Positions 53,515 to 63,285 of a stretch of DNA of 64,000 nucleotides are shown in pieces (position 1 is the first letter of the stretch; each line of letters starts with the position of its first letter). The notes under the pieces are model-generated. The model was not told where the DNA came from and ran no database searches. It saw nothing but the letters and a program-made list of their open reading frames with translations. Origin of the DNA: an uncultured candidate division Zixibacteria bacterium (GTDB lineage Bacteria > Zixibacteria > MSB-5A5 > RBG-16-43-9); assembly GCA_963713865.1 (NCBI GenBank), contig OY970208.1, positions 2,144,001 through 2,208,000 of the forward strand, read 5' to 3'. Both the position numbers and the translations under genes were made by a program.

Positions 53515-54431
53515 TCTTTTAACCGCCTGCCGGTTAATTTCAGAAACACATCTTCCAGGTTGGCATCTCTGATCATCGCTGACCTGAAGCTGTATTTATT
53601 CAGGATTTCGGTGAAAACGCCCCTGGTATGATTGGTGAAAACCTGGATCCTGTCTCCTAAAATCTCAAGTTTTGCCTCAGGAAACGTATCCTTGAGGAAT
53701 TTCAGGACATCCTCGTCACAGGCTACTTCCAATACCTCTTCTCCCGCATGTTTTTTAACTAAATCCAAAGGTCTGCCTTCCTCGATAATTTTCCCATAAT
53801 CCATAATAACAGTTCGCTCGCAGAGCTGGGCTGCTTCCTCCATATAATGGGTAGTCAGAACTATGGTGACCCCTTGTTTCTGTAAACTTCTGATTTTGTC
53901 CCAGATCAGATGCCGGGCTTGAGGGTCTAAGCCGGTGGTTGGTTCATCTAAGATAAGAATCTGCGGCTCGTTTATTAAGGATCTGGCAAGAATAAGCCTT
54001 CTTTTCATCCCTGCGGATAACTGGTCGATTATGACATCCCGTTTATCCCCTAACTGGACGAATTTCAGAAGTTCCTCTGCTCTTTTTTGAGCTTTTACTT
54101 GAGGTATGTCAAAATAGCGGGCATAGACTATGAGATTATGCAAAACCGTGAAATCCGGGTCAAGGTTATCCTCCTGCGAAGCAACGCCGATCATCTTTTT
54201 AATCTCTCTTCCCTCTCTGGTTACGTCCATACCTGAAACCGAAAGACTGCCTGAGGTTAAGGGCAACACACACTGGACCATTTGCATGGTTGTGGTCTTC
54301 CCAGCCCCATTAGGACCAAGAAAACCAAAACACTCACCTTTATATACCTGGAAGCTGATTTGGTCCACCGCTGTAAAATCTCCAAATTTTTTGGTAAGAC
54401 CCTCTGCTTTAATGAGAACTTCTGATTTCAT
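53511..54431 (-). CDS. ABC transporter ATP-binding protein (NodI-like)
   Basis: GPNGAGKTT, LSAGM and LDEPTTGLDPQARH motifs. Confidence 0.92.
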   Translation of the reverse strand: MKSEVLIKAEGLTKKFGDFTAVDQISFQVYKGECFGFLGPNGAGKTTTMQMVQCVLPLTSGSLSVSGMDVTREGREIKKMIGVASQEDNLDPDFTVLHNLIVYARYFDIPQVKAQKRAEELLKFVQLGDKRDVIIDQLSAGMKRRLILARSLINEPQILILDEPTTGLDPQARHLIWDKIRSLQKQGVTIVLTTHYMEEAAQLCERTVIMDYGKIIEEGRPLDLVKKHAGEEVLEVACDEDVLKFLKDTFPEAKLEILGDRIQVFTNHTRGVFTEILNKYSFRSAMIRDANLEDVFLKLTGRRLKE

Positions 54432-54668
54432 AATTTGCCTTCCTCACACCCACCAATTTATTCAGTATGAAGTGCATGCAATTTATGCTGTGGAATAAGT
54501 ATAGTCAAGATTTTTTAGGGACATGTTGCAGCCTACCCCTACCTTAAAACCGTAACGTCCGACCATCGCATCGGACGAATAAAAAAAATTTAACTCGTAG
54601 TGCGACCCTTTCAGGGTTGCATAGCAATGTAGGAGCGTATTGCGATGTGCCCCTACCATAAATAAAAT

Positions 54669-54815
54669 TTATTTCTTTTCTTCCTCTTTAATCCTTCTCA
54701 CCGAGTTCGACTGGCACTTGGGGCAGGCGCGTTCCACTAAAGGACCCTTCGGGTCAAAGGGCATTTTGAACTCATGCCCGCAGCGTAAGCATTTGAATTT
54801 GGCTTCTTCTGGCAT
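54669..54815 (-). CDS. Small zinc-ribbon / rubredoxin-like protein (48 aa)
   Basis: MPEEAKFKCLRCGHEFKMPFDPKGPLVERACPKCQSNSVRRIKEEEKK; two CxxC pairs; shorter than any ORF in the track. Confidence 0.72.
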   Translation of the reverse strand: MPEEAKFKCLRCGHEFKMPFDPKGPLVERACPKCQSNSVRRIKEEEKK

Positions 54816-54845
54816 AGTAAAAACAGTTTAAAAGTTTATTAATAC

Positions 54846-54933
54846 TGTCATTGCGAGCGACTGCAAGGAGCAAAGCAATCTTTTTACTATGAAGGGATTG
54901 CTTCGTCGGTCAAATGACCTCCTCACAAAGACA
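54846..54933. repeat. TGTCATT-family palindromic element
   Basis: TGTCATTGCGAG..AAGCAATC..GATTGCTT..CTCACAAAGACA. Confidence 0.8.
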
Positions 54934-55043
54934 GCAAGATCAAGGGCAGACACGGAGGTCTGCCCCTACGATTTACGGTCACGAAACACGAATGACGGTC
55001 ACGTTTTTTTCTTTTCCTTTTTCCTTTTTCAGTCTTCCTTTTT

Positions 55044-57494
55044 CTATGCAGTCTTAACTGCTACCTTCACCTTCTTCGTCCCTTTTGGTTTCAGGTCTGA
55101 CAGGGCTTTTTTGGTGAACTCTATTTCCTCTTTGGTAACTATCTTCCTCATCTCTTCCATCACTCTCATCACCCGGGCAAATTTCTGACCTTCTGCCGCG
55201 CTAATCCACTCCAGCTGCAGTCTTTCCGGACGAATCCCTTTCTTCTCCAATTTATCCCACAGCCTTTCCACCCTTCTTTGAGTCCATCTATTCGCATCGA
55301 TATAATGACAGTCTGCAAAATGACACCCGGAAACCAAAACAATGGGAGCACCCTTCTGAAAAGCATATAAGACGAACTGTTCATCTACCCTGCCCGAACA
55401 CATTGTCCTGATCAGCCTTGAGGTAGTGGGATACTGCAATCTGGAGATGCCTGCCATATCTCCACCCGCATAGGAGCACCAGTTACAGGCAAAGACCACG
55501 ATCTTCTCCTCAGGGTTTTCATCTAAGATCGCATCTATCTGAGAGAAAATCTGCCTGTCAGTGAAATGCCTCATAGTGATGGCACCAAAAGGACACTCCG
55601 CTCCGCAGGTTCCACACCCGGCACAGGCCGCCTCGATTATCTCCGCCGGAATTTTCTTTTCACGATCGACAATTATTGATTTAAAGGGACAGGCACGGTA
55701 GCAGATCTCGCAGGCAGTACAGATTTCTTTATCTACAATCGAGGTAATGGCTTCAATTTCTAATTTATCTGAGGCTAATATAATTCCCGCACGTGCTGCT
55801 GCAGCAGATGCCTGGGTTACGCTGTCCTTTACATCTTTAGGAGACTCAGCTACTCCTGCGAAGAAGACCCCTTTGGTAGGAGCATCTATCGGTTTTAATT
55901 TGGGATGTGATTCCATATAAAATCCATCCTGGGTTCGGGAAAGAGTCAAAAGCTGCTGGATAGGGTCATTTTTCCATTTAGGCTCGTATCCGATAGATAA
56001 CACCAGCATGTCCAAATTATGCTTTTCCACCTTCCCGGTGGTGGTGTTCTCTACGGAAAGCAGAAGATTTTTGGTTTCAGGATCTTCCTCTATGTCGCCA
56101 GGGATTCCTCGAATATATTTTACTCCTGCCTCCTTGCTTCTTTTATAAAGGTCCTCAAACCCCTTGCCGAACGTCCGCATGTCCATATAGAAGACTTTCG
56201 CCTCTATGTCCGGATAATGGTCCTTTAAAAGCACTGTATCCTTAACCGTATTCATACAGCAGATATTACTGCAGTAAGGGTTCCCTCTCTTCTCCGAGCG
56301 TGAGCCTACGCACTGGATAAAACCGATGGTTTTAGGGGCTTGGTGATCAGCCGGTCTGATGAAATGCCCGCCAGTTGGACCTCCGGCGCAGATAAGCCTT
56401 TCAAATTCCAGACTGGTGATTACGTTCTCAAAGCGGGTGTAACCGTATTCATCTAATTGAGTGGGGTCATAAATATCCAAGCCCGTAGCGGCGATTATCG
56501 CCCCTACTTCTACATCGATTATCTGATCCTGCATATCGTAATCGATACATTTCTTCTCGCATACCTCAGCGCATTTCCCGCAGGCAATAGGATTATTCCC
56601 CAGACAATCATTCATATTTATCAGATAAGCAGAAGGGACGGCTTGAGGGAGTTGTATATAAATAGCTTTGCGCGAGGAGAAACCCATCTGGTATTCATCC
56701 GGCACTGCAACCGGACAAACCTTAACGCATTCTGCGCAGGAATTGCACTTGGTCTCATCCACATACCGGGCTTTTTTCCTGATCTTAACCTTAAAATTTC
56801 CAATATAACCTGAGACTTTTTCAACTTCACTGTAAGCGTAGAGCTTAATCTTCGGATGTCGACCGACATCCATCATCTTCGGTCCCAGAATTCATATGGA
56901 ACAGTCCATCGTGGGATAGGTCTTATCAATTTGTGCCATTATCCCGCCAATAGAAGGGTCTTTTTCAACCAAATAGACCTGATAACCGGTATCCGCTAAA
57001 TCTAAAGCGGCTTGAATTCCCGCTACACCTCCACCGATAACCAGAGCTTTATTCGTAACTGGAACTACCTTCTCAATCTGCGGCTCTAAAAACCTTGCAC
57101 GTGCTACTCCGATTTTCACCATATCCTTTGCCTTATCCGTAGCACCTTTCCTGTCGTGCAGATGTACCCAGGAACAATGCTCTCTCAGATTTACCATCTC
57201 CAGTAAATATGGATTCACGCCCACATCTGCCACGCAGGCTCTGAAAGTAGGCTCATGCATTCTGGGAGAACAGGAAGCCACCACTACCCGGTTGAGATTA
57301 TTTTCTTTGACATACCTTTTGATCTCATTCTGTCCCGGGTCCGCGCAGGTATATTTGTTCAAAACCGAAACCTTTACATCCGGTAGGGTCTCAGCAAATT
57401 TCCTGACCTCTTCGCAGTCTAAAGAGCCAGCGATATTCAGCCCGCATTCACACACGAAAACCCCGACCCTCAACTCTTCTGCCAAGCTACTCAC
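55044..57494 (-). CDS. hdrA: Selenocysteine-containing HdrA-MvhD fusion (816 aa, Sec UGA at 56892-56894)
   Basis: ORFs 56892..57494 and 55044..56876 are in frame via [27 protein letters not shown] motif, QCVGSR..YCS.ICC, C-terminal MvhD domain (CNWCSY, MCSGRV, GCH..DCHY). Confidence 0.9.
56854..56871 (-). promoter_or_regulatory. Putative SECIS hairpin within hdrA
   Basis: GGAUGUC-GGUC-GACAUCC; the loop starts 27 nt after the UGA. Confidence 0.75.
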
Positions 57495-57550
57495 CTCCTA
57501 TGGCTAAAGCCAAAAGTAAAGTTAAATTCATGATATCGTTTTTTTAGTTC
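57488..57550. repeat. Duplicated 3' end of the hdrD-like gene
   Basis: 57488-57517 is identical to 59066-59095 (30 nt); degenerate similarity continues for about 30 nt more. Confidence 0.9.
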
Positions 57551-57591
57551 TTATTCTTGGCTATTATTGCATAAATGCATATTAATACCTT

Positions 57592-58209
57592 TTATAAAAA
57601 TCTTTCATAACAATCTTTAATAACTATAATAACCTGTTTTCTCAATAATTTATTATTCCACCATATTATTAGACATATAACAGTGGAAGTTATCCCTACT
57701 AATAGGAATCTCATGAATTCGATTTGAACTGTAGAAATTAATAAACAATACGCAAATGCTGCGATTAATGCAAGTGGAGTTGCGATAATTAATGAAAAGT
57801 CTATCGAAATAAAATCCATCCGCTTTCTGACCCACTCGCGTAACCATTCATATCTTTTTAATTTTTCGATATCTTCCAGTTTATCAGTTTTTGTAGTAAG
57901 GATTACAGTATGAGCTTCGATGACTGGTTCGTCCTCAACAGCTGGACTAAACTGTTTATTTGCTTTCCTTAAAGCTGACCTAGACATACCCAGACAAGGA
58001 AGCCACAAATATAAACACTGTTGAAATGCAGATAAAATGTAACCTGCTGGAATAAAAGAAACACCTGCTATTACGCCAATATCACGAAAAGAATTTTCAG
58101 TTTGAGTTAGTAAACAGGGAGATATCGCCCAAATCCATCCGATTACAAGCCCCCAAAAATATGCTCCTGGAATTCCATTTCGTTCAAACCAGTTCACTCT
58201 ATTCTCCAA
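57592..58209 (-). CDS. Hypothetical membrane protein (about 4 TM), in AT-rich insert
   Basis: 205-aa ORF with two hydrophobic pairs; start codon uncertain. Confidence 0.6.
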   Translation of the reverse strand: MENRVNWFERNGIPGAYFWGLVIGWIWAISPCLLTQTENSFRDIGVIAGVSFIPAGYILSAFQQCLYLWLPCLGMSRSALRKANKQFSPAVEDEPVIEAHTVILTTKTDKLEDIEKLKRYEWLREWVRKRMDFISIDFSLIIATPLALIAAFAYCLLISTVQIEFMRFLLVGITSTVICLIIWWNNKLLRKQVIIVIKDCYERFL

Positions 58210-58244
58210 TGGCTAAAGCATATGTTATTTTAAAATATTTCATC

Positions 58245-59072
58245 TCATTTCGTTGTTGTGCTAACATATTTCCCCCAATTTTCTAATAATTCTTCTTTAC
58301 TAATATTGTTATCATTAATGATAGGGCTTATCAATTCTATCTTTTCTTCCATCAAATATTTTTTATCAACTCTCTCCAAAAAACTGATCAGTGAATCTCT
58401 AACCCATATAATATTTTCATAAGCAGTCTTCGCGCATTCATAGTTAAAAGAAGAAAAATCTTTTCCTATCTTCGAGATTGGCCAAAAATTATCTGGAAAA
58501 TTATCAGTAAGTTCATGCACTCTATCGGGCTTTAGTTTAGCTAGTACCATGAATGGTTCAGGTTTACCATGCATAATAGAATTCCTTATCTCCACCAATT
58601 CCTCGAAAAGACTAAATGCCTTTGTATTCTTTCTAAAATAGACCGCAGGTGGCGACAGTTGAGAGTTGCATAGAGTCGGTAGAAAATAGACCTTATCTAC
58701 AAGACGCCAGTAATCAATATGATTTTTTCTCTGGTGTCTACTCAGTAGATTCTTAGGCAGATCATCTTTTGCTCTAATAGAGAAATCTTTTAAAACATTA
58801 TTAGCAAATGCCTCAATTCCAGCTATACCCATAATAAAACAAGCTCTGGATGCAGACTTTTCTTTCATCCATAAATCTTGATTGAATTCTTGTGGTTTTG
58901 ATGGATCTTGTCCATGAACTTTTTGATACAATTCTCGTGCCTCATTGTAATAATATTCCATGCTATAAAATAGCGACTGGAATGGACGTCTAATATATTT
59001 AGCGAATTGCCACGGCATAGTAAATTCTTTTGTGTCAGGGTGAGATCCTGACATAATTTGAAATTTACTCAC
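58245..59072 (-). CDS. Hypothetical protein with HEPN-like RxxxxH motif, in AT-rich insert
   Basis: AGIEAFAN helix and IRNSIMHG; the family call is an inference. Confidence 0.6.
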   Translation of the reverse strand: MSKFQIMSGSHPDTKEFTMPWQFAKYIRRPFQSLFYSMEYYYNEARELYQKVHGQDPSKPQEFNQDLWMKEKSASRACFIMGIAGIEAFANNVLKDFSIRAKDDLPKNLLSRHQRKNHIDYWRLVDKVYFLPTLCNSQLSPPAVYFRKNTKAFSLFEELVEIRNSIMHGKPEPFMVLAKLKPDRVHELTDNFPDNFWPISKIGKDFSSFNYECAKTAYENIIWVRDSLISFLERVDKKYLMEEKIELISPIINDNNISKEELLENWGKYVSTTTK

Positions 59073-60216
59073 CTCCTATGGCTAAAGCCAAAAGTGTAGT
59101 TAAGTCTATAATATCAATTTTTAATTCTTCTTTCTTTTTCCCCTTTTCTTTTTCTGAACCAGACTGAGCACACTTAAAATGAATCTGGCATTTTGGACAG
59201 GCAGTTACCAGTATCTCTGCTCCAGTTGACCTTGCCTCTTTCAACCTTTCATCTTGAATCTTTTTGGAAGAAGCATCACAGTTTATCCAACCAACAGTAC
59301 CACAGCAGATAGCTTTAGCACCGCTTCTTTTCATCTCTTTAAAATCTACCCCTTTAATGCTGTTAATGACCTTACGGGGAGCTTCATATATGTTCATAAA
59401 TCTGCCCAATCTGCAGGGATCCTGGAAGGTAACTTTTTTATCCAGACCTTTTATTTTTATCTGGGGTAATCTTTCAGCTAAAAACTCGGAGATATGCATA
59501 ACCTCATAGTCAACTTTTCCCACCAAATCCGGATAATCTATTTTCAGGGTCATAAAACATTCCGGACAGGAAGTGATGATTTTCTTAGCCCCGGTTTTTT
59601 TAATCCCGTTTATATTATGTTGAGCTAATTTTTTGAAATTCTCAAAATCCCCGGTCCATAAAAGATCGTGCCCGCAGCACCTCTCATTGGGCATAATCTG
59701 AGGCTCTACTCCTAAGAGATTTAAGATTTTTAAAGTTGAGCGAGCAATATCCAGAGAACTGGCTTTAATATCTGAGAAGAATGTGTCAAAATAGGGCAGA
59801 CAGCCAACAAAGTAAAGATATTCGCCATTTTTTGAAGTTTTTAAATCGGGAGTTATCCAGCCAGTTCTGTCCTGATTCAATTCTGGTGCAGTCATTATCT
59901 TCATAAGAGAATGCAAAGCCCCACCGTGAGAGCATTTCCCTTCCTCGCCAATTTTCTTAGCCTCAAACCTTAGAAGCTTGGTGAACTCAACATAATCCAC
60001 GTCCGAAGGGCAGATATCCTGACACCTCCTGCAGGTCAGACAACTCCATAATCCTGCATCCTGCAAGACATAATCATCTGAGCGGTTCACCGTCAGAGTT
60101 ACCAGTTTTCTCGGAGAATATCCATTCTTGACATTAGCAATCGGGCAAACCGCAGTACATTTACCGCAATCAAGACAATAATAGGCTTTGGTTTTTTTGA
60201 TGATATCTTCTTTCAT
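59065..60216 (-). CDS. HdrD-like Fe-S oxidoreductase (2x4Fe-4S plus two CCG domains)
   Basis: CLDCGKCTAVCP, CLTCRRCQDICP, YFVGC..ERCCG..CPEC and DPCRLGR..CCG..CPKC. Confidence 0.88.
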   Translation of the reverse strand: MKEDIIKKTKAYYCLDCGKCTAVCPIANVKNGYSPRKLVTLTVNRSDDYVLQDAGLWSCLTCRRCQDICPSDVDYVEFTKLLRFEAKKIGEEGKCSHGGALHSLMKIMTAPELNQDRTGWITPDLKTSKNGEYLYFVGCLPYFDTFFSDIKASSLDIARSTLKILNLLGVEPQIMPNERCCGHDLLWTGDFENFKKLAQHNINGIKKTGAKKIITSCPECFMTLKIDYPDLVGKVDYEVMHISEFLAERLPQIKIKGLDKKVTFQDPCRLGRFMNIYEAPRKVINSIKGVDFKEMKRSGAKAICCGTVGWINCDASSKKIQDERLKEARSTGAEILVTACPKCQIHFKCAQSGSEKEKGKKKEELKIDIIDLTTLLALAIGGE

Positions 60217-60262
60217 AATTTTGCTTTTCGTTTTTGGCTGTTCGCTGTTCGATATTTGATGG

Positions 60263-60367
60263 TGTCATTGCGAGCGATTCCGTAATTTGCTGGAGAGCGA
60301 AGCAATCTGTTTACCCAGATTGGGCGGATTGCTTCGTCGTCCCCTACGGGAACTCCTCGCAATGACA
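60263..60367. repeat. TGTCATT-family palindromic element (mvhD-hdrD junction)
   Basis: TGTCATTGCGAG..CGAAGCAATC..GATTGCTTCG..CTCGCAATGACA. Confidence 0.85.
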
Positions 60368-60405
60368 GCTTTCATCTATCCTTCATTCATCATTTATTTT
60401 TCCCC

Positions 60406-60849
60406 TTAAACCTTTGAACTATTGAACTTTTGAACCTTTCTTAATGGGCTCGGTCCTACTTTCTTCACGTCCTCCACGAACTCCTTGATCAGTTGAGCCC
60501 ATCTCCCGCCTTCTGCGGCTGAGACCCATTCCAGTCTCAATCTTTCCTTTTCTATCCCTAACATCTTCACTAAATTCTTGGTAATCTCGAACTGCTCCAC
60601 TGCCCGGTAATTTCCGAAAACGTAATGGCAATCCCCGAAATGGCAACCTGACCACATCACCCCATCTGCACCTAATTCAAATGCTTTCAAAATAAAAGCA
60701 GGCCTGACCCTTCCTGAACACATCACCCGGATTAGCCTGACATTTGGAGGATACTGCAATCTGCCTACCCCGGCTGTATCCGCACCCGCATAAGAACACC
60801 AGTTGCAGGCAAACACTATAATTTTAGGCTTGAATATCTTTTCCGTCAT
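60406..60849 (-). CDS. mvhD: MvhD/FlpD 2Fe-2S subunit
   Basis: [26 protein letters not shown] and WVSAAEG motifs. Confidence 0.92.
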   Translation of the reverse strand: MTEKIFKPKIIVFACNWCSYAGADTAGVGRLQYPPNVRLIRVMCSGRVRPAFILKAFELGADGVMWSGCHFGDCHYVFGNYRAVEQFEITKNLVKMLGIEKERLRLEWVSAAEGGRWAQLIKEFVEDVKKVGPSPLRKVQKFNSSKV

Positions 60850-60855
60850 AATTGT

Positions 60856-61344
60856 TTACTCCCCGAAAAAAGTCTGAGCAAAAATCCCGGCTATCGGTGG
60901 AAAGATAAGGGTAGATAAAAATCTCACTATCGCAACTTTAGGACCGATTATCGCCACCTCCACAGGAATCCTGTAAACCTGCCATAAAGACCAGGCAGCC
61001 ACAAAACCAACAACTGCACCCAGACTGGCACCTGCCTTATAAAACCCTGCTACAATGGGAAAGGATATGTAAGGTGCGCCCGGGGTTAAAGCTCCAGCCA
61101 CACAACCGATTAGAATCCCCTTATATCCAGACTCAGTTCCAATCCATCTGGCTATCACCTCTTTTGGAATCAAAACCTGCATCAAACCTGCAATGGCAAA
61201 GGAAACAATTAGAATGGGCAGGATGCTGATGAACATCTTCCCACCGTTTTTAAGCCCAGCCAGTGGTAAGTCTGAACTTTTTATATAGGCTATCACACAC
61301 AATATTATAGCCAGCACAATCATCACCCAGGTCGCACCAGACAT
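60856..61344 (-). CDS. Small permease (ArsP/DUF318-like)
   Basis: Hydrophobic; LIPKE.I.RWIG and GALTPG.PY.SFP; start moved to MSGATW because the upstream part is REP sequence. Confidence 0.72.
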   Translation of the reverse strand: MSGATWVMIVLAIILCVIAYIKSSDLPLAGLKNGGKMFISILPILIVSFAIAGLMQVLIPKEVIARWIGTESGYKGILIGCVAGALTPGAPYISFPIVAGFYKAGASLGAVVGFVAAWSLWQVYRIPVEVAIIGPKVAIVRFLSTLIFPPIAGIFAQTFFGE

Positions 61345-61372
61345 TTTATTTTCCTTTATGTTTTCTGAATCC

Positions 61373-61433
61373 GCGTAGGGGCGGAGTTTACCTCCGCCCT
61401 TGGGGACGGGTGGAGACAAGCTCCACCCCTACG
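61373..61433. repeat. REP doublet at the 3' side of the second RAYT
   Basis: GTAGGGGCGGAGTTTACCTCCGCCC..GGGTGGAGACAAGCTCCACCCCTAC; direct repeat of 61911-61972. Confidence 0.9.
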
Positions 61434-61875
61434 CAAATAGCTCATTTCTTTCTTTCTCCAACTCTTTCTTCAATCGATTATTTAAAATATATTGTGCTTT
61501 TTCAAGATAATCCTTCTCATTTCTAATCACATGATCATAAAATCCTCTCTGCCAAATCTTTTCACTGACACCAAATTCTTCTCGTATGTCTTTAGCAGTA
61601 ACAGATTTAAACCTCTGAATAAGTTGGGATAAAGTGTAATTCTGTTTCTGATTGAAAAACAAAATCAGATGTATATGATCTGGCATAACGCAGAAATGAT
61701 CGATCTCCAACTTATCTATTCTATTTAAATCTTTAAGATTTTTCTCTGCAATCTCCTTAAATGGAATTGTTTTAAAATACCCCTTTTTATTATTACAACT
61801 GATCGTGACAAAGTAAGCCCCTTCAGAGGAATAATCATAATCCTTTAATCTTAATGAGTTCTTTCTTCTGTACAT
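61429..61875 (-). mobile_element. REP-associated tyrosine transposase (RAYT, HUH Y1)
   Basis: RRKNSLRLKDYDYS..GAYFVTI, MPDHIH, WQRGFYDHVIRN, YI.NN; flanked by REP doublets. Confidence 0.9.
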
Positions 61876-61910
61876 TGCTTCTCTTTCTCTGCTCTTTATC
61901 TATTCAGTTC

Positions 61911-61972
61911 GCGTAGGGACGGAGTTTACCTCCGCCCTTGGGGAAGGATGGAGATAAGCTCCACCTCTATGC
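61911..61972. repeat. REP doublet at the 5' side of the second RAYT
   Basis: GTAGGGACGGAGTTTACCTCCGCCC..GGATGGAGATAAGCTCCACCTCTATGC. Confidence 0.9.
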
Positions 61973-62710
61973 TATTGATCTCTTATACAACTCCAAAGTT
62001 TTATCTATCGTTTCTAAATGTTCCTTTTCATGCTCTAAAAATCTTCTTAACACTTTTCCAAACGTCCATTTTTCATCTTTATATTTAGCATATTTCTTGG
62101 GGATATTTATTCTATTTTTATCTTCTTGGGAAAGATTTTTCAAAATCTTTACAGCTAATTCCCTGGTCTTTTTTAATTTCTCAAATATTTTTCCCGGTGG
62201 GCATTTATATACATAGGGTAAAGCATAAAGCTCCTTGTAATCTTTCATCCTGGAAAGATACCACCACTCGGCATTGGCAATATGATTTAAAGTATCTCTG
62301 ATAGAACGTTTATCTTTGTTTGCTTTCCAGTCTAATGTCTCATCCGATAATTTTCTGACCTTATTCAAAAGCTCTTTCCGGTTATATCCCATCCATTTCA
62401 GACATTTTTTAATAAAATCTTTCGTTGGTGGAATTAAATCGTAAGAGAACAAAGCAGCCTTGCTTCCGCTGATAAGGGGGCAAGTTCCTTTCTGGGTCTC
62501 CACGATTTCGAACTCAATCTTCTTAGGAATTAGCAAACTTTTCTCACCATTTTTCTTTAGATATTCAAGATGTTCTTTTATCACTTCAGGAATTTTTTTT
62601 AAAGCTTTCTTTTCAGTTTTATCCCAGACAAAACATCCTGGGAGTTCCCGGACGTGAGCCATACAATAACCTTTTTTATCAACTTCAAGATAAACTTGAT
62701 ACTTTCTCAT
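61967..62710 (-). CDS. HicB-like N-terminal domain fused to a DinB-like domain
   Basis: AHVRELPGC..EKKAL..I.E.I (HicB-like); RSIRDTLNHIA.AEWWY and HEKEH (DinB-like); start moved to MRKYQV. Confidence 0.7.
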   Translation of the reverse strand: MRKYQVYLEVDKKGYCMAHVRELPGCFVWDKTEKKALKKIPEVIKEHLEYLKKNGEKSLLIPKKIEFEIVETQKGTCPLISGSKAALFSYDLIPPTKDFIKKCLKWMGYNRKELLNKVRKLSDETLDWKANKDKRSIRDTLNHIANAEWWYLSRMKDYKELYALPYVYKCPPGKIFEKLKKTRELAVKILKNLSQEDKNRINIPKKYAKYKDEKWTFGKVLRRFLEHEKEHLETIDKTLELYKRSIA

Positions 62711-62811
62711 ATTTTTTGTTTCCCTTCTTGCAGGGCTGGGAGCCCTGCCTACGGGAACAAAAGATTTTGTTTTTCGTAGGTCGGGCACCTTTGCTCGACC
62801 GATTTCATCGC

Positions 62812-63285
62812 TTATTTATAACCGTACAAATCCGGGGGTTTAATACCCAACAGTCGTAAGTAAGTAAACAGCTGACCCCGGTGATGCCAGTGCTCATCAT
62901 GTATTGATGAAAAGCAAATCCAGGTTGGGAATTGGTCTCCCCAGAATACCTTCACATTCTTTTTCATCTGAGTTGGCGTGAGCTTTTTTGCGATTCGGTT
63001 AGTATTTTGATGAACCTTCTTGGCATATTTGATTAAATCATCTATGCTCTTAGCTTCACACGTAGCCTTTTTGAAATCGTCCTCAGAGATAACACCTTTC
63101 TTAGCTCCGTCTGCAAATACTTTCTCACTTTTATAAATATGACAGACCAGCTCTTTTATGGACATAACTTCTGGACAGGGTTTGAAATCGAGCTTGTCCT
63201 CAGGAATTAACTTAATCGCTTTCAAGGTTACCTTATGAACTTTATCAAAGTAACCGAGCATACCCATCACATCTTTTTTCTCCAT
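62812..63285 (-). CDS. DinB family protein
   Basis: LDFKP..MSIKELV.HI and HEHWHHRGQL..YLR..G..PP-like C-terminal motif. Confidence 0.85.
   Translation of the reverse strand: MEKKDVMGMLGYFDKVHKVTLKAIKLIPEDKLDFKPCPEVMSIKELVCHIYKSEKVFADGAKKGVISEDDFKKATCEAKSIDDLIKYAKKVHQNTNRIAKKLTPTQMKKNVKVFWGDQFPTWICFSSIHDEHWHHRGQLFTYLRLLGIKPPDLYGYK

Follow-up and report, generated by a model that had tools for sequence, protein, structure and literature searches.

The junction between hdrD and hdrA as an apparent recurrent site of cassette insertion in an order of Zixibacteria

We analyzed a 64,000-nucleotide stretch of DNA (the window) from the closed, 2,723,046-bp genome of an uncultured Zixibacteria bacterium (GenBank assembly GCA_963713865.1, contig OY970208.1, positions 2,144,001 to 2,208,000). 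Two core genes in this stretch, hdrD and hdrA, are separated by a 1,578-bp insert that contains two genes and is bracketed by direct copies of the 3' end of hdrD. In related bacteria, the same junction is either empty or filled with other genes. Judging from these sequence comparisons, cassettes have entered the hdrD-hdrA junction repeatedly across an order of Zixibacteria. Below, we refer to the window's genome as G000, to other genomes and to loci by handles that begin with G or L, and to family and genus groups by f and g. The genes lie on the minus strand in the order mvhD, hdrD, ORF1, ORF2, and hdrA (ORF, open reading frame). The features of the locus are as follows.

59065-60216, minus strand: hdrD, the upstream core gene, encoding an HdrD-like Fe-S/CCG-domain subunit of 383 aa (Pfam CCG, 5e-34; Fer4_8, 4e-11).
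59066-59136, minus strand: copy B of the repeat, from the repeat search, which is the true 3' end of hdrD (the last 23 codons and 2 bases of the stop) and contains AGGAGGTGA.
59033-59053, minus strand: a degenerate hairpin resembling a repetitive extragenic palindrome (REP) of the TGTCAGGA..CCTGACA type, just 3' of the hdrD stop and within the optional N-terminal extension of ORF1 (match at 59034).
58245-59018, minus strand: ORF1, a putative HEPN-fold protein of 257 aa when counted from the conserved ATG, with a frame that stays open to a GTG at 59072 (mechanical ORF 58245-59072).
58195-58219, minus strand: a third copy, GCTTTAGCCATTGGAG then AATAGAGTG, which aligns with the empty-site junction (the hdrD stop and the hdrA start codon) except for gaps of 3 nt and 1 nt.
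57592-58197, minus strand: ORF2, a predicted membrane protein of an unannotated family, 201 aa from a GTG (mechanical ORF 57592-58209).
57488-57558, minus strand: copy A of the repeat, a decayed 3' remnant of hdrD whose last 30 nt are exact and which carries the hdrA Shine-Dalgarno sequence.
55044-57485, minus strand: hdrA, the downstream core gene, encoding an HdrA-MvhD fusion (Pfam FAD/NAD-binding, Fer4, and FlpD; mechanical frame from about 57494).
60406-60849, minus strand: mvhD, the gene upstream of hdrD.

The original prediction, made from the letters of the window, reported that a 30-mer at the end of hdrD recurs just before hdrA, and this held up. The 30-mer is present at 57488-57517 and 59066-59095 and nowhere else in the window, even when up to 3 mismatches are allowed (0 expected, from 100 shuffles), and its two occurrences in the whole genome are both at the hdrD-hdrA site. 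The similarity extends to 71 ungapped nt (copies A and B, 80% identity, 30 nt exact) at a spacing of 1,578 nt. Copy A does look like a decayed tail of hdrD, as had been proposed: upstream of the exact 30 nt, it has an in-frame stop and a 1-nt indel, and its distal 41 nt differ from those of copy B by 14 mismatches and one indel. Copy B, in comparison with the empty-site allele of the same-genus genome G001, has 2 differences across the 41 nt upstream of the exact core. The third copy is also real: its 16-nt core at 58204-58219 has one mismatch, and just 0.07 matches with up to 2 mismatches would be expected by chance. Two further statements of the prediction, that the insert is AT-rich and has no integrase, agree with our results. 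The GC content of the insert is 0.336, versus a genome mean of 0.404 (standard deviation 0.029 for 1.5-kb windows), which places it in the lowest 1.1% of windows; GC content at third codon positions is 0.25-0.29 for the insert genes, versus 0.39-0.51 for hdrD, hdrA, and mvhD. A Pfam scan found no integrase domain in ORF1, ORF2, or the other scanned ORFs of the window.

We considered whether the duplication might be an assembly artefact or a chance match. The one public sequencing run that was found (X1) covers 0.06 of sampled words and yields three short perfect pieces, with no joint and with neither repeat bridged; no circle, empty-site read, or polymorphism within the population was recovered from it. 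However, contigs from X1 match 58206-58350 and 59530-59757 with zero differences, and the shuffles gave zero chance matches. Other assemblies show homologous junctions: hdrD-X-ORF1-repeat-hdrA in loci L040 and L042, and ORF2 homolog-remnant-hdrA in L048. Because independent assemblies bridge homologous junctions (L040/L042, L047, and L048), an assembly artefact is very unlikely, and we give next to no credence to this explanation as a whole.

HdrD orthologs are present across the order; for the protein in the window, every NCBIfam match is below its cut-off (the best are to models of the TfrB/HdrC/HdrB type). We placed HdrD orthologs in 41 related genomes and compared the DNA downstream. The junction could be resolved in 23 genomes, including G000; in G010, G015, G027, and G028, the contig with hdrD ends before the junction. 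In eight of the 23 (G001, G003, G004, G005, G007, G011, G017, and G034), the site is empty and 0-55 nt separate the two genes; the other 15 are filled and hold inserts of about 320 to 3,090 nt. Filled junctions make up 2 of 7 in family f1, 12 of 12 in f2, 1 of 3 in f4, and 0 of 1 in f5. Scanning metagenome contigs with a 21-nt core gave 9 more loci, 6 of them empty. Given these empty and alternative alleles, it is not the case that relatives always carry the same two genes.

The cargo of the relatives includes DUF4258 toxins with MqsA-like or unnamed partners, a ParE pair, minimal nucleotidyltransferase (MNT) and MNT-HEPN modules, a CPBP/Rce1-like protease, a DUF483-like protein of 332 aa, a PNPOx-like gene of 143 aa (in 11 of the 12 f2 genomes), and proteins without an assignment. 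In G000 and in the relatives examined, all cargo ORFs with support from a homolog or from Pfam are on the same strand as hdrD, the scan having covered plus-strand ORFs. No integrase or recombinase domain was found among the 17 plus-strand cargo ORFs of relatives that were scanned. The cassettes also occur in different combinations. Where G000 has ORF1 and ORF2, G006 (genus g3 of the same family) has hdrD, a CPBP gene, a homolog of ORF1 (78% amino acid identity), a 26-nt repeat of the hdrD end, and hdrA; the metagenome locus L042 has the same arrangement. L047 has a CPBP gene and then an MNT gene. L048 has a 264-aa ORF without an assignment, a homolog of ORF2 (47% identity), a decayed hdrD remnant of roughly 120 nt, and hdrA, which is about 94% identical, versus 47% for the ORF2 homolog. 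By eye, we estimate that the MNT genes of L035 (from G026, in f2) and of L047 (f1 type) are about 70% identical; HdrD is about 65% identical between these families.

The order of insertion can be read from the third copy. The ORF1 region of the window aligns with G006 as far as this copy, which is orthologous to the right-hand repeat of G006; therefore, ORF2 was added behind an array that had only ORF1. The idea that cassettes were acquired successively at this site is thus borne out, both by variable occupancy (8 of 23 empty, 15 of 23 filled) and by the orthology of the third copy. Beyond its 16 nt, the alignment of the third copy continues as GGAG[gap]AATAGA[gap]GTG and matches the junction of the G001 type, including the start codon of hdrA. 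The ORF2 homolog in L048 has the same leader, TAGGAG-TATAGA-ATG. ORF2 thus has a relic of the stop-start junction on one side and, on the other, a second relic derived from the hdrD tail, which is the layout expected after insertion and duplication at the junction. A 3-nt deletion that seemed to be common to the left junction of G006 and the third copy was dropped from consideration: the alignment shows a different change in G006.

What does the repeat bring with it? The empty junction in G001 reads ...GCCATAGGAGGTGAATAGAAGTGGCAGAG, that is, the hdrD stop, two bases, and the hdrA start. The Shine-Dalgarno sequence of hdrA (GGAGG) therefore lies within the last codons of hdrD. Since the repeat includes it, the signals for translation of the downstream gene would be kept. 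The prediction that each insertion keeps downstream expression intact is in part supported: the duplicated piece retains the Shine-Dalgarno sequence of hdrA, and expression itself may follow by read-through. There is no excess of terminators in the insert and none is strong (4, versus 1.9 +/- 1.7 in shuffles), and promoter-like sites in the region number 5, versus 10.6 +/- 3.3 in shuffles.

The start codons first proposed are another matter. The GTG at 57494, which the repeat supplies and which was thought to start hdrA, directly abuts the Shine-Dalgarno sequence with no spacer. The window's equivalent of the start in empty-site relatives is a TTG at 57485-57483, just beyond the repeat and 8 nt after GGAGG; as it aligns with the start in those relatives, it is the more likely start of hdrA. 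Similarly, ORF1 had been suggested to start at the same GGAG-GTG-AGT. Homologs of ORF1 begin with MPWQF, which corresponds to the ATG at 59018, and the 18 codons upstream of this ATG cover the hairpin, which is intergenic in G006. We conclude that the conserved ATG is probably the start and that the GTG at 59072 is probably not used. The alignments of ORF2 with its homologs begin at the residue that corresponds to the GTG at 58197, so the GTG of the third copy is likely to be the start of ORF2. Overall, the repeat provides the ribosome-binding site of hdrA, though probably not the start codons first proposed.

The account that we favor, with about even confidence, is homology-driven insertion without a dedicated enzyme (Campbell-type or homology-facilitated illegitimate), together with selection. 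The junction between these translationally coupled genes would be a recombination hot spot in this order of Zixibacteria, and small co-oriented accessory genes would enter it one after another. The incoming DNA would already have a segment of the hdrD 3' end beside its cargo, either as a circle that was excised between repeats or as a linear fragment from a relative, and would integrate by a single crossover (Campbell-type) or by homology-facilitated illegitimate recombination. Every insertion that survives would leave behind, next to hdrA, a copy of the final 16-136 nt of hdrD. As the duplicated tail holds the Shine-Dalgarno sequence of hdrA and the upstream part of its initiation region, both the C-terminus of HdrD and the ribosome-binding site of hdrA would be preserved, and selection would remove the products that damage either of them. 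Ordinary homologous recombination, either between the repeats or within hdrD and hdrA on the two sides, would then spread alleles or remove them.

The lengths of the repeats agree with this account. Independent duplications of the hdrD 3' end were found in G009 (136 nt, 93% identity, flanking a DUF4258 toxin-antitoxin pair), in G026 (about 80 nt, 75%), and in G006 (18-26 nt). In 11 of the 12 f2 genomes, the leader upstream of hdrA contains GGAGGTGA, and most of these leaders resemble an old hdrD tail (GATTTGAC...GCTTAGGAGGTGAATG). On the right, the repeats consistently reach the stop codon of hdrD; it is the position of the left edge that differs and gives lengths of 16-136 nt. A variable length with a constant right edge would be predicted by homology-driven insertion and duplication and would be unexpected for a fixed attachment (att) core. 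The ends of hdrD are also mosaic. The hdrD of the G006-type allele is 82-97% identical to that of G007 until its last 150 nt, which are of the g1 type (89% identical to G000 and 82% to G007) and share the indel pattern of that type. The start of hdrA in G006, in contrast, is G007-like (95%); therefore, the locus was imported by recombination within hdrD. In the metagenome allele L041, we noticed the reverse of G006, a gene that is g1-like overall with a tail of the G007 type, so hdrD ends are mosaic even at empty sites. The comparison suggests that recombination breakpoints cluster at the end of hdrD. The label "integrase-less" is true of the inserts themselves; the repeat lengths, the mosaic hdrD ends, and the lack of a recombinase in the inserts lean toward recombination without a dedicated enzyme.

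The exact identity of 30 nt between copies A and B does not by itself point to a crossover core, since this final part of hdrD shows conservation at the nucleotide level in 11 lineages: among 11 real hdrD ends, 7 of the last 30 columns vary, versus 23 of the preceding 45. Presumably, this end is constrained as the initiation region of hdrA.

Another possibility is that one or a few old events occurred in place, with illegitimate insertion and local duplication (for instance, by unequal sister-strand exchange or template switching), and that vertical inheritance and many precise losses, through recombination between the repeats, did the rest, with no movement of cassettes between genomes. Such an origin would fit the rare GAG variant that copies A and B have in common, and the distal part of copy A has decayed (stop, indel) as a noncoding relic would. 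Direct repeats permit precise deletion to the empty state, and the divergence of ORF1 between G000 and G006 at 4-fold-degenerate sites (0.34) is within the range for core genes of the g1 group (0.27-0.38). However, many independent precise losses would be needed (in G001, G003, G004, G005, G007, and 6 metagenome lineages), close lineages differ in their combination of cargo, and in L048, identity falls from about 94% for hdrA to only 47% for the ORF2 homolog. Also, the g1-type end of hdrD beside a cassette in G006, which belongs to genus g3, indicates import. We consider this scenario unlikely. The age of copy A bears on its recent version: at 4-fold sites, G000 and G001, whose site is empty, have diverged by only 0.27-0.29, with both lineages summed, and in light of this, the 14 differences in 41 nt imply that copy A predates the split between G000 and G001 or is foreign. 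A recent duplication in place is unlikely, with a rough binomial p of about 0.01 if 4-fold sites are taken as neutral.

Alternatively, the end of hdrD could be an attachment site, and the inserts could be integrase-less mini-elements, similar to cis-mobilizable elements (CIMEs) or to integrative mobile elements exploiting Xer (IMEXs), that are moved by a recombinase that is encoded elsewhere or has been lost. Tandem insertion would then give attL-cassette-att-cassette-attR, and the locus does have three co-oriented copies of the core at cassette boundaries. In two events, the junction falls directly behind GGAG or on the start codon of hdrA; the core holds a palindrome, TGGCT-TT-AGCCA, as read from the sequence; and the CPBP, MNT, ORF1, and ORF2 cassettes recur in varied combinations at this one locus. 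ORF2-family genes in two Planctomycetota genomes are found between local repeats with a common 18-nt core (described below). The ssrA islands that lie in tandem in Dehalococcoides are a precedent, as 15 of them have no integration module (PMC3146451). Against this, no element with an integrase is present at any of the 15 filled loci, as judged from the scanned ORFs of inserts of up to 3.1 kb. G000 has one intact tyrosine recombinase and fragments of others, and we found no serine recombinase in the whole genome. It also has no integron integrase (TIGR02249) above the 265-bit cut-off: the best match is to a 99-aa fragment, 1.4 Mb away, at 106.7 bits. The repeats of 16-136 nt have arms that resemble hdrD coding sequence instead of a fixed att site, and the nucleotide-level constraint in 11 lineages explains the conserved 30 nt. 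Furthermore, ORF1 homologs at the 8 closest other Zixibacteria loci are solitary and in unrelated contexts, with hairpins of mixed types nearby, and no repeats flank them at E <= 0.05 except for a 15-nt match in L059. We therefore regard an attachment site as improbable.

Two other searches touch on whether such repeats occur elsewhere. A genome-wide scan for direct repeats that flank AT-rich segments identified no second duplication of a gene tail, but its filter dropped the hdrD pair too, and the results were dominated by paralogs and by elements resembling REPs or miniature inverted-repeat transposable elements (MITEs). In viral contigs, a 17-nt core pattern was found in 12, none of which had hdrD, hdrA, ORF1, or ORF2, and the ORF1 profile identified no relative there.

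Several points weigh against homology-driven insertion as well. The crossover and duplication step rests on comparison and not on direct observation, and cores of 16-30 nt are short for RecA-dependent recombination. Junctions of the f1 type cluster at a small stretch that contains a palindrome (TGGCTTTAGCCA), and a site-specific enzyme would explain this clustering as well. A G (GGTGAGTA) carried by both copy A and copy B is otherwise present only in the lineage of L047; this shared G fits duplication in place or gene conversion better than it fits an arm imported from elsewhere. In two Planctomycetota genomes, a conserved local repeat is found at the borders of ORF2-family genes, a hint that this family of cargo may travel as site-specific cassettes. 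We found no repeat flanking the extra cargo in L023, L024, L026, L027, or L028. Finally, the Pfam scan of the relatives' cargo covered plus-strand ORFs only.

A more elaborate reading is that the end of hdrD, with the initiation region of hdrA, is a dedicated docking site for integrase-less mini-cassettes that are shuffled among Zixibacteria by a recombinase acting in trans. We find this doubtful. The pool of cassettes would include the HEPN, CPBP, and MNT-HEPN genes, a four-helix membrane protein, and others. Candidate enzymes would be the host's single Xer-type recombinase or a Y1 transposase of the REP-associated tyrosine transposase (RAYT) type that acts on hairpins at the cassette borders, and the repeat-bounded ORF2-family cassettes of Planctomycetota would be a sister case. 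If true, the site would be an integron-like capture platform in a core operon, which lends transcription and translational coupling to conflict genes.

Some observations on hairpins and transposases are relevant here. G000 has eight Y1_Tnp genes (IS200/RAYT-like) and at least 21 hairpins of the form GTCAGGAG-N-CTCCTGAC, often as doublets; this includes the type of the degenerate hairpin 3' of hdrD. In several places in G000, hairpins flank segments of 0.9-1.8 kb (e.g., C1:1249892-1251680, 776772-777670, and 2689199-2690157). One hairpin-flanked segment is an AT-rich (GC 0.35) two-gene module that has other DNA in its place in G001. Homologous hairpin doublets are present at the boundaries of hdrD-hdrA cassettes in G006 and L047. 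Within the window, an IS200-like Y1 transposase at 61429-61875 (Pfam Y1_Tnp, 2e-13) lies between exact 25-nt direct repeats (61382-61406 and 61920-61944). These repeats hold a GGAG..CTCC hairpin, so the arrangement resembles a RAYT with its REPs. The adjoining DinB/HicB-like genes (61967-63285) have a low GC content of 0.32-0.36.

In the spacer between mvhD and hdrD (about 60236-60385), we noticed a MITE-like inverted-repeat element of the TCATTGCGAGC...GCTCGCAATGA type, which fills the spacer and at which many X1 contigs stack with indels. Within the mvhD-hdrD alignment, conservation is lowest in this spacer (51-74% identity). We also noticed that hdrA is divided into frames of 200 aa and 610 aa by an in-frame TGA at 56892-56894 (minus strand), and a two-piece hdrA was seen in all of the relatives examined. 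If the TGA is read as U, the product contains ..TMDCSIUILGPK... The TGA is probably a selenocysteine codon; selenocysteine is known at this position of HdrA. In a scan of positions 54000-62000, there was no match to a selenocysteine insertion sequence and no Rfam match at E <= 1.

Turning to the cargo in the window, ORF1 does not match any family in Pfam, PHROGs, or NCBIfam. In an alignment of 30 sequences, it has a conserved motif, R145-N-x3-H150, in which R145 and N146 are nearly invariant and H150 is invariant; this conforms to the R-x4-6-H pattern of the HEPN superfamily. The AlphaFold (AF2) model of ORF1 has a predicted local distance difference test score (pLDDT) of 93.2. When the model was compared to 48,161 chains, the top 8 were all HEPN proteins (Z of 7.9-8.7, root mean square deviation of 3.3-4.1, 113-134 residues aligned), although Z below about 13 is common among helical bundles. 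Foldseek gave no match in PDB at E <= 0.001, and a comparison of the ORF1 sequence to PDB chains gave nothing meaningful. No curated HEPN family model matched ORF1 above threshold: a hidden Markov model for RTasHEPN matched weakly (E = 0.0088), and the homolog in G006 matched HEPN_RiboL-PSP at 18.0 bits, below the cut-off of 28.4. Based on the motif, the structural matches to a predicted model, and the weak profile matches, we file ORF1 as a putative member of the HEPN superfamily, and RNase activity is probable. The ORF1 family is present in 24 of 285 Zixibacteria species genomes, and a sequence search also gave homologs with 65-72% identity to ORF1. ORF1 does not form a HEPN-MNT pair with its neighbor: ORF2 has no nucleotidyltransferase domain, so there is no adjacent MNT partner. 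A genuine MNT-HEPN pair is found at the hdrD-hdrA site of G026, and an MNT gene in L047.

ORF2 also lacks matches in Pfam, PHROGs, and NCBIfam, and in the protein atlas it belongs to unnamed clusters only. By eye, its sequence has four hydrophobic segments. The family comprises 161 representative clusters at E <= 1e-3, with alignment from residue 1, across phyla: its hosts include Chloroflexi, Planctomycetota, Omnitrophota, and a Methanoperedens genome, with varying neighbors, and just 1 of 285 Zixibacteria genomes contains it. There was no consistent Pfam or PADLOC family among 50 members. Among genome contigs, relatives of ORF2 were found at 12 loci, 11 of which we examined (L110, a partial match of 63 residues, was excluded). 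No partner gene recurs among these 11 loci: hsdS and hsdM appear once, a group II intron reverse transcriptase once, and otherwise the neighbors are housekeeping genes or have no assignment. In L100, a contig from a Sedimentisphaerales genome, the ORF2-family gene sits between the type I restriction-modification genes hsdS and hsdM, a position in which abortive-infection genes are known. From the company that it keeps at the hdrD-hdrA locus, our guess is that ORF2 might have a role in a conflict system; by analogy, both ORF1 and ORF2 may be of the conflict or defense type.

In two Planctomycetota genomes (L105/L111 on G285:C59 and L102/L112 on G286:C101), ORF2-family genes are in small low-GC arrays whose cassettes are separated by a repeat of 26-50 nt with an 18-nt core, CAATCGTTAAAATGGTGC. 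The core is identical in the two genomes, which are labeled as belonging to different orders. Each genome has three copies with up to 1 mismatch, all at the array locus, and G286 has one more match, with two mismatches, on another contig. Neither genome has an integron integrase above the cut-off. An origin of this repeat from a tRNA was rejected, as the only tRNA is 160 nt away.

How does the hdrD-hdrA site compare to known systems? CIMEs are segments accreted at att sites and are defined relative to a cognate integrative and conjugative element or integrative and mobilizable element whose integrase uses the same att site. The hdrD-hdrA inserts are similar in that they have att-like repeats at both borders, no recombination or transfer genes, and a tandem arrangement. 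Unlike for CIMEs, no cognate integrase-bearing element was found in the 15 filled junctions or in 3 filled metagenome loci, although this does not prove its absence. IMEXs integrate at the chromosomal dif site and have dif-like borders, and the inside of an operon is not where we would expect a dif site. Like an integrase-bearing island or prophage at the 3' end of a gene, the inserts have direct repeats of the target's end at both borders and leave the target gene intact, but they encode no integrase (ORF1, ORF2, and the 17 scanned cargo ORFs of relatives). As in integrons, small co-oriented genes without promoters are stacked behind a fixed expression signal, with toxin-antitoxin cargo or cargo without an assignment in varied combinations. 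In contrast to integrons, there is no IntI above the cut-off and no attI, and the expression signal is the coupling region of a core operon. Between integron cassettes, attC sites would be expected as imperfect inverted repeats with RYYYAAC / GTTRRRY ends; at the hdrD-hdrA site, the boundaries have direct repeats of the hdrD end, with REP-like hairpin doublets at some of them in G006 and L047. Hot spots for defense or toxin-antitoxin genes have variable conflict cargo between conserved core genes, exchanged by flank homology, and they are usually intergenic, between separate transcription units, and kilobases to tens of kilobases in size. The hdrD-hdrA site differs in that it lies between a stop and a start that are a few nucleotides apart and in that the end of the target is duplicated.

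In PMC2884548, which cites de Vries and Wackernagel 2002, Prudhomme et al. 2002, and Meier and Wackernagel 2003, homology-facilitated illegitimate recombination is presented as giving rise to variable segments. This process and Campbell-type insertion are like the hdrD-hdrA case: one homologous anchor with an illegitimate join, or a single crossover with a circle, inserts foreign DNA and can duplicate the anchor, with variable length and no dedicated enzyme. Unlike the laboratory cases and the generic genome comparisons there, the hdrD-hdrA site would be a recurrent natural hot spot within an operon, with stacked cassettes and retention of the coupling sequence.

Among the documented cases that we considered, the nearest is the ssrA islands of Dehalococcoides, in which successive islands lie downstream of one conserved gene with a 20-bp repeat of the ssrA end (PMC3146451). 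The same source names the CIME concept, and its 15 islands without an integration module are proposed to be cis-mobilizable. The hdrD-hdrA inserts likewise accumulate 3' of a conserved gene and are bounded by a direct repeat of its 3' end. In Dehalococcoides, however, the islands target a tmRNA gene, their repeat has a fixed length of 20 bp, and an integration module with a serine recombinase is present in many of them (PMC3146451). At the hdrD-hdrA site, insertion occurs at the tail of a protein-coding gene within an operon, the repeats span 16-136 nt, the cassettes are single and 0.3-3 kb, and we saw no integrase in any allele and found no integrase-bearing sibling. In the accessible literature on heterodisulfide reductase in Zixibacteria and on toxin-antitoxin or core-gene insertion hot spots, we found no account of this locus or of a cassette site between a stop and a start, which is not proof that none has been published. 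Overall, the locus combines known kinds of arrangement: islets bounded by att-like repeats, and insertion with duplication at a hot spot.

If homology-driven insertion is correct, selfish or defensive genes of an uncultured phylum would have a long-lived landing site in a stop-start junction of a few nucleotides, within a conserved energy-metabolism operon. Because the tail of the upstream gene holds the ribosome-binding site of the downstream gene, duplication of this tail would be the price of admission. The locus would offer a sequence-defined case of how small accessory genes move without a recombinase of their own, and a case for asking how operon coupling limits which insertions survive and whether insertion and duplication by homology can mimic integron-like arrays. 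It would also add two unannotated families, the 257-aa putative HEPN protein and the membrane protein of roughly 200 aa, to the candidate conflict genes.

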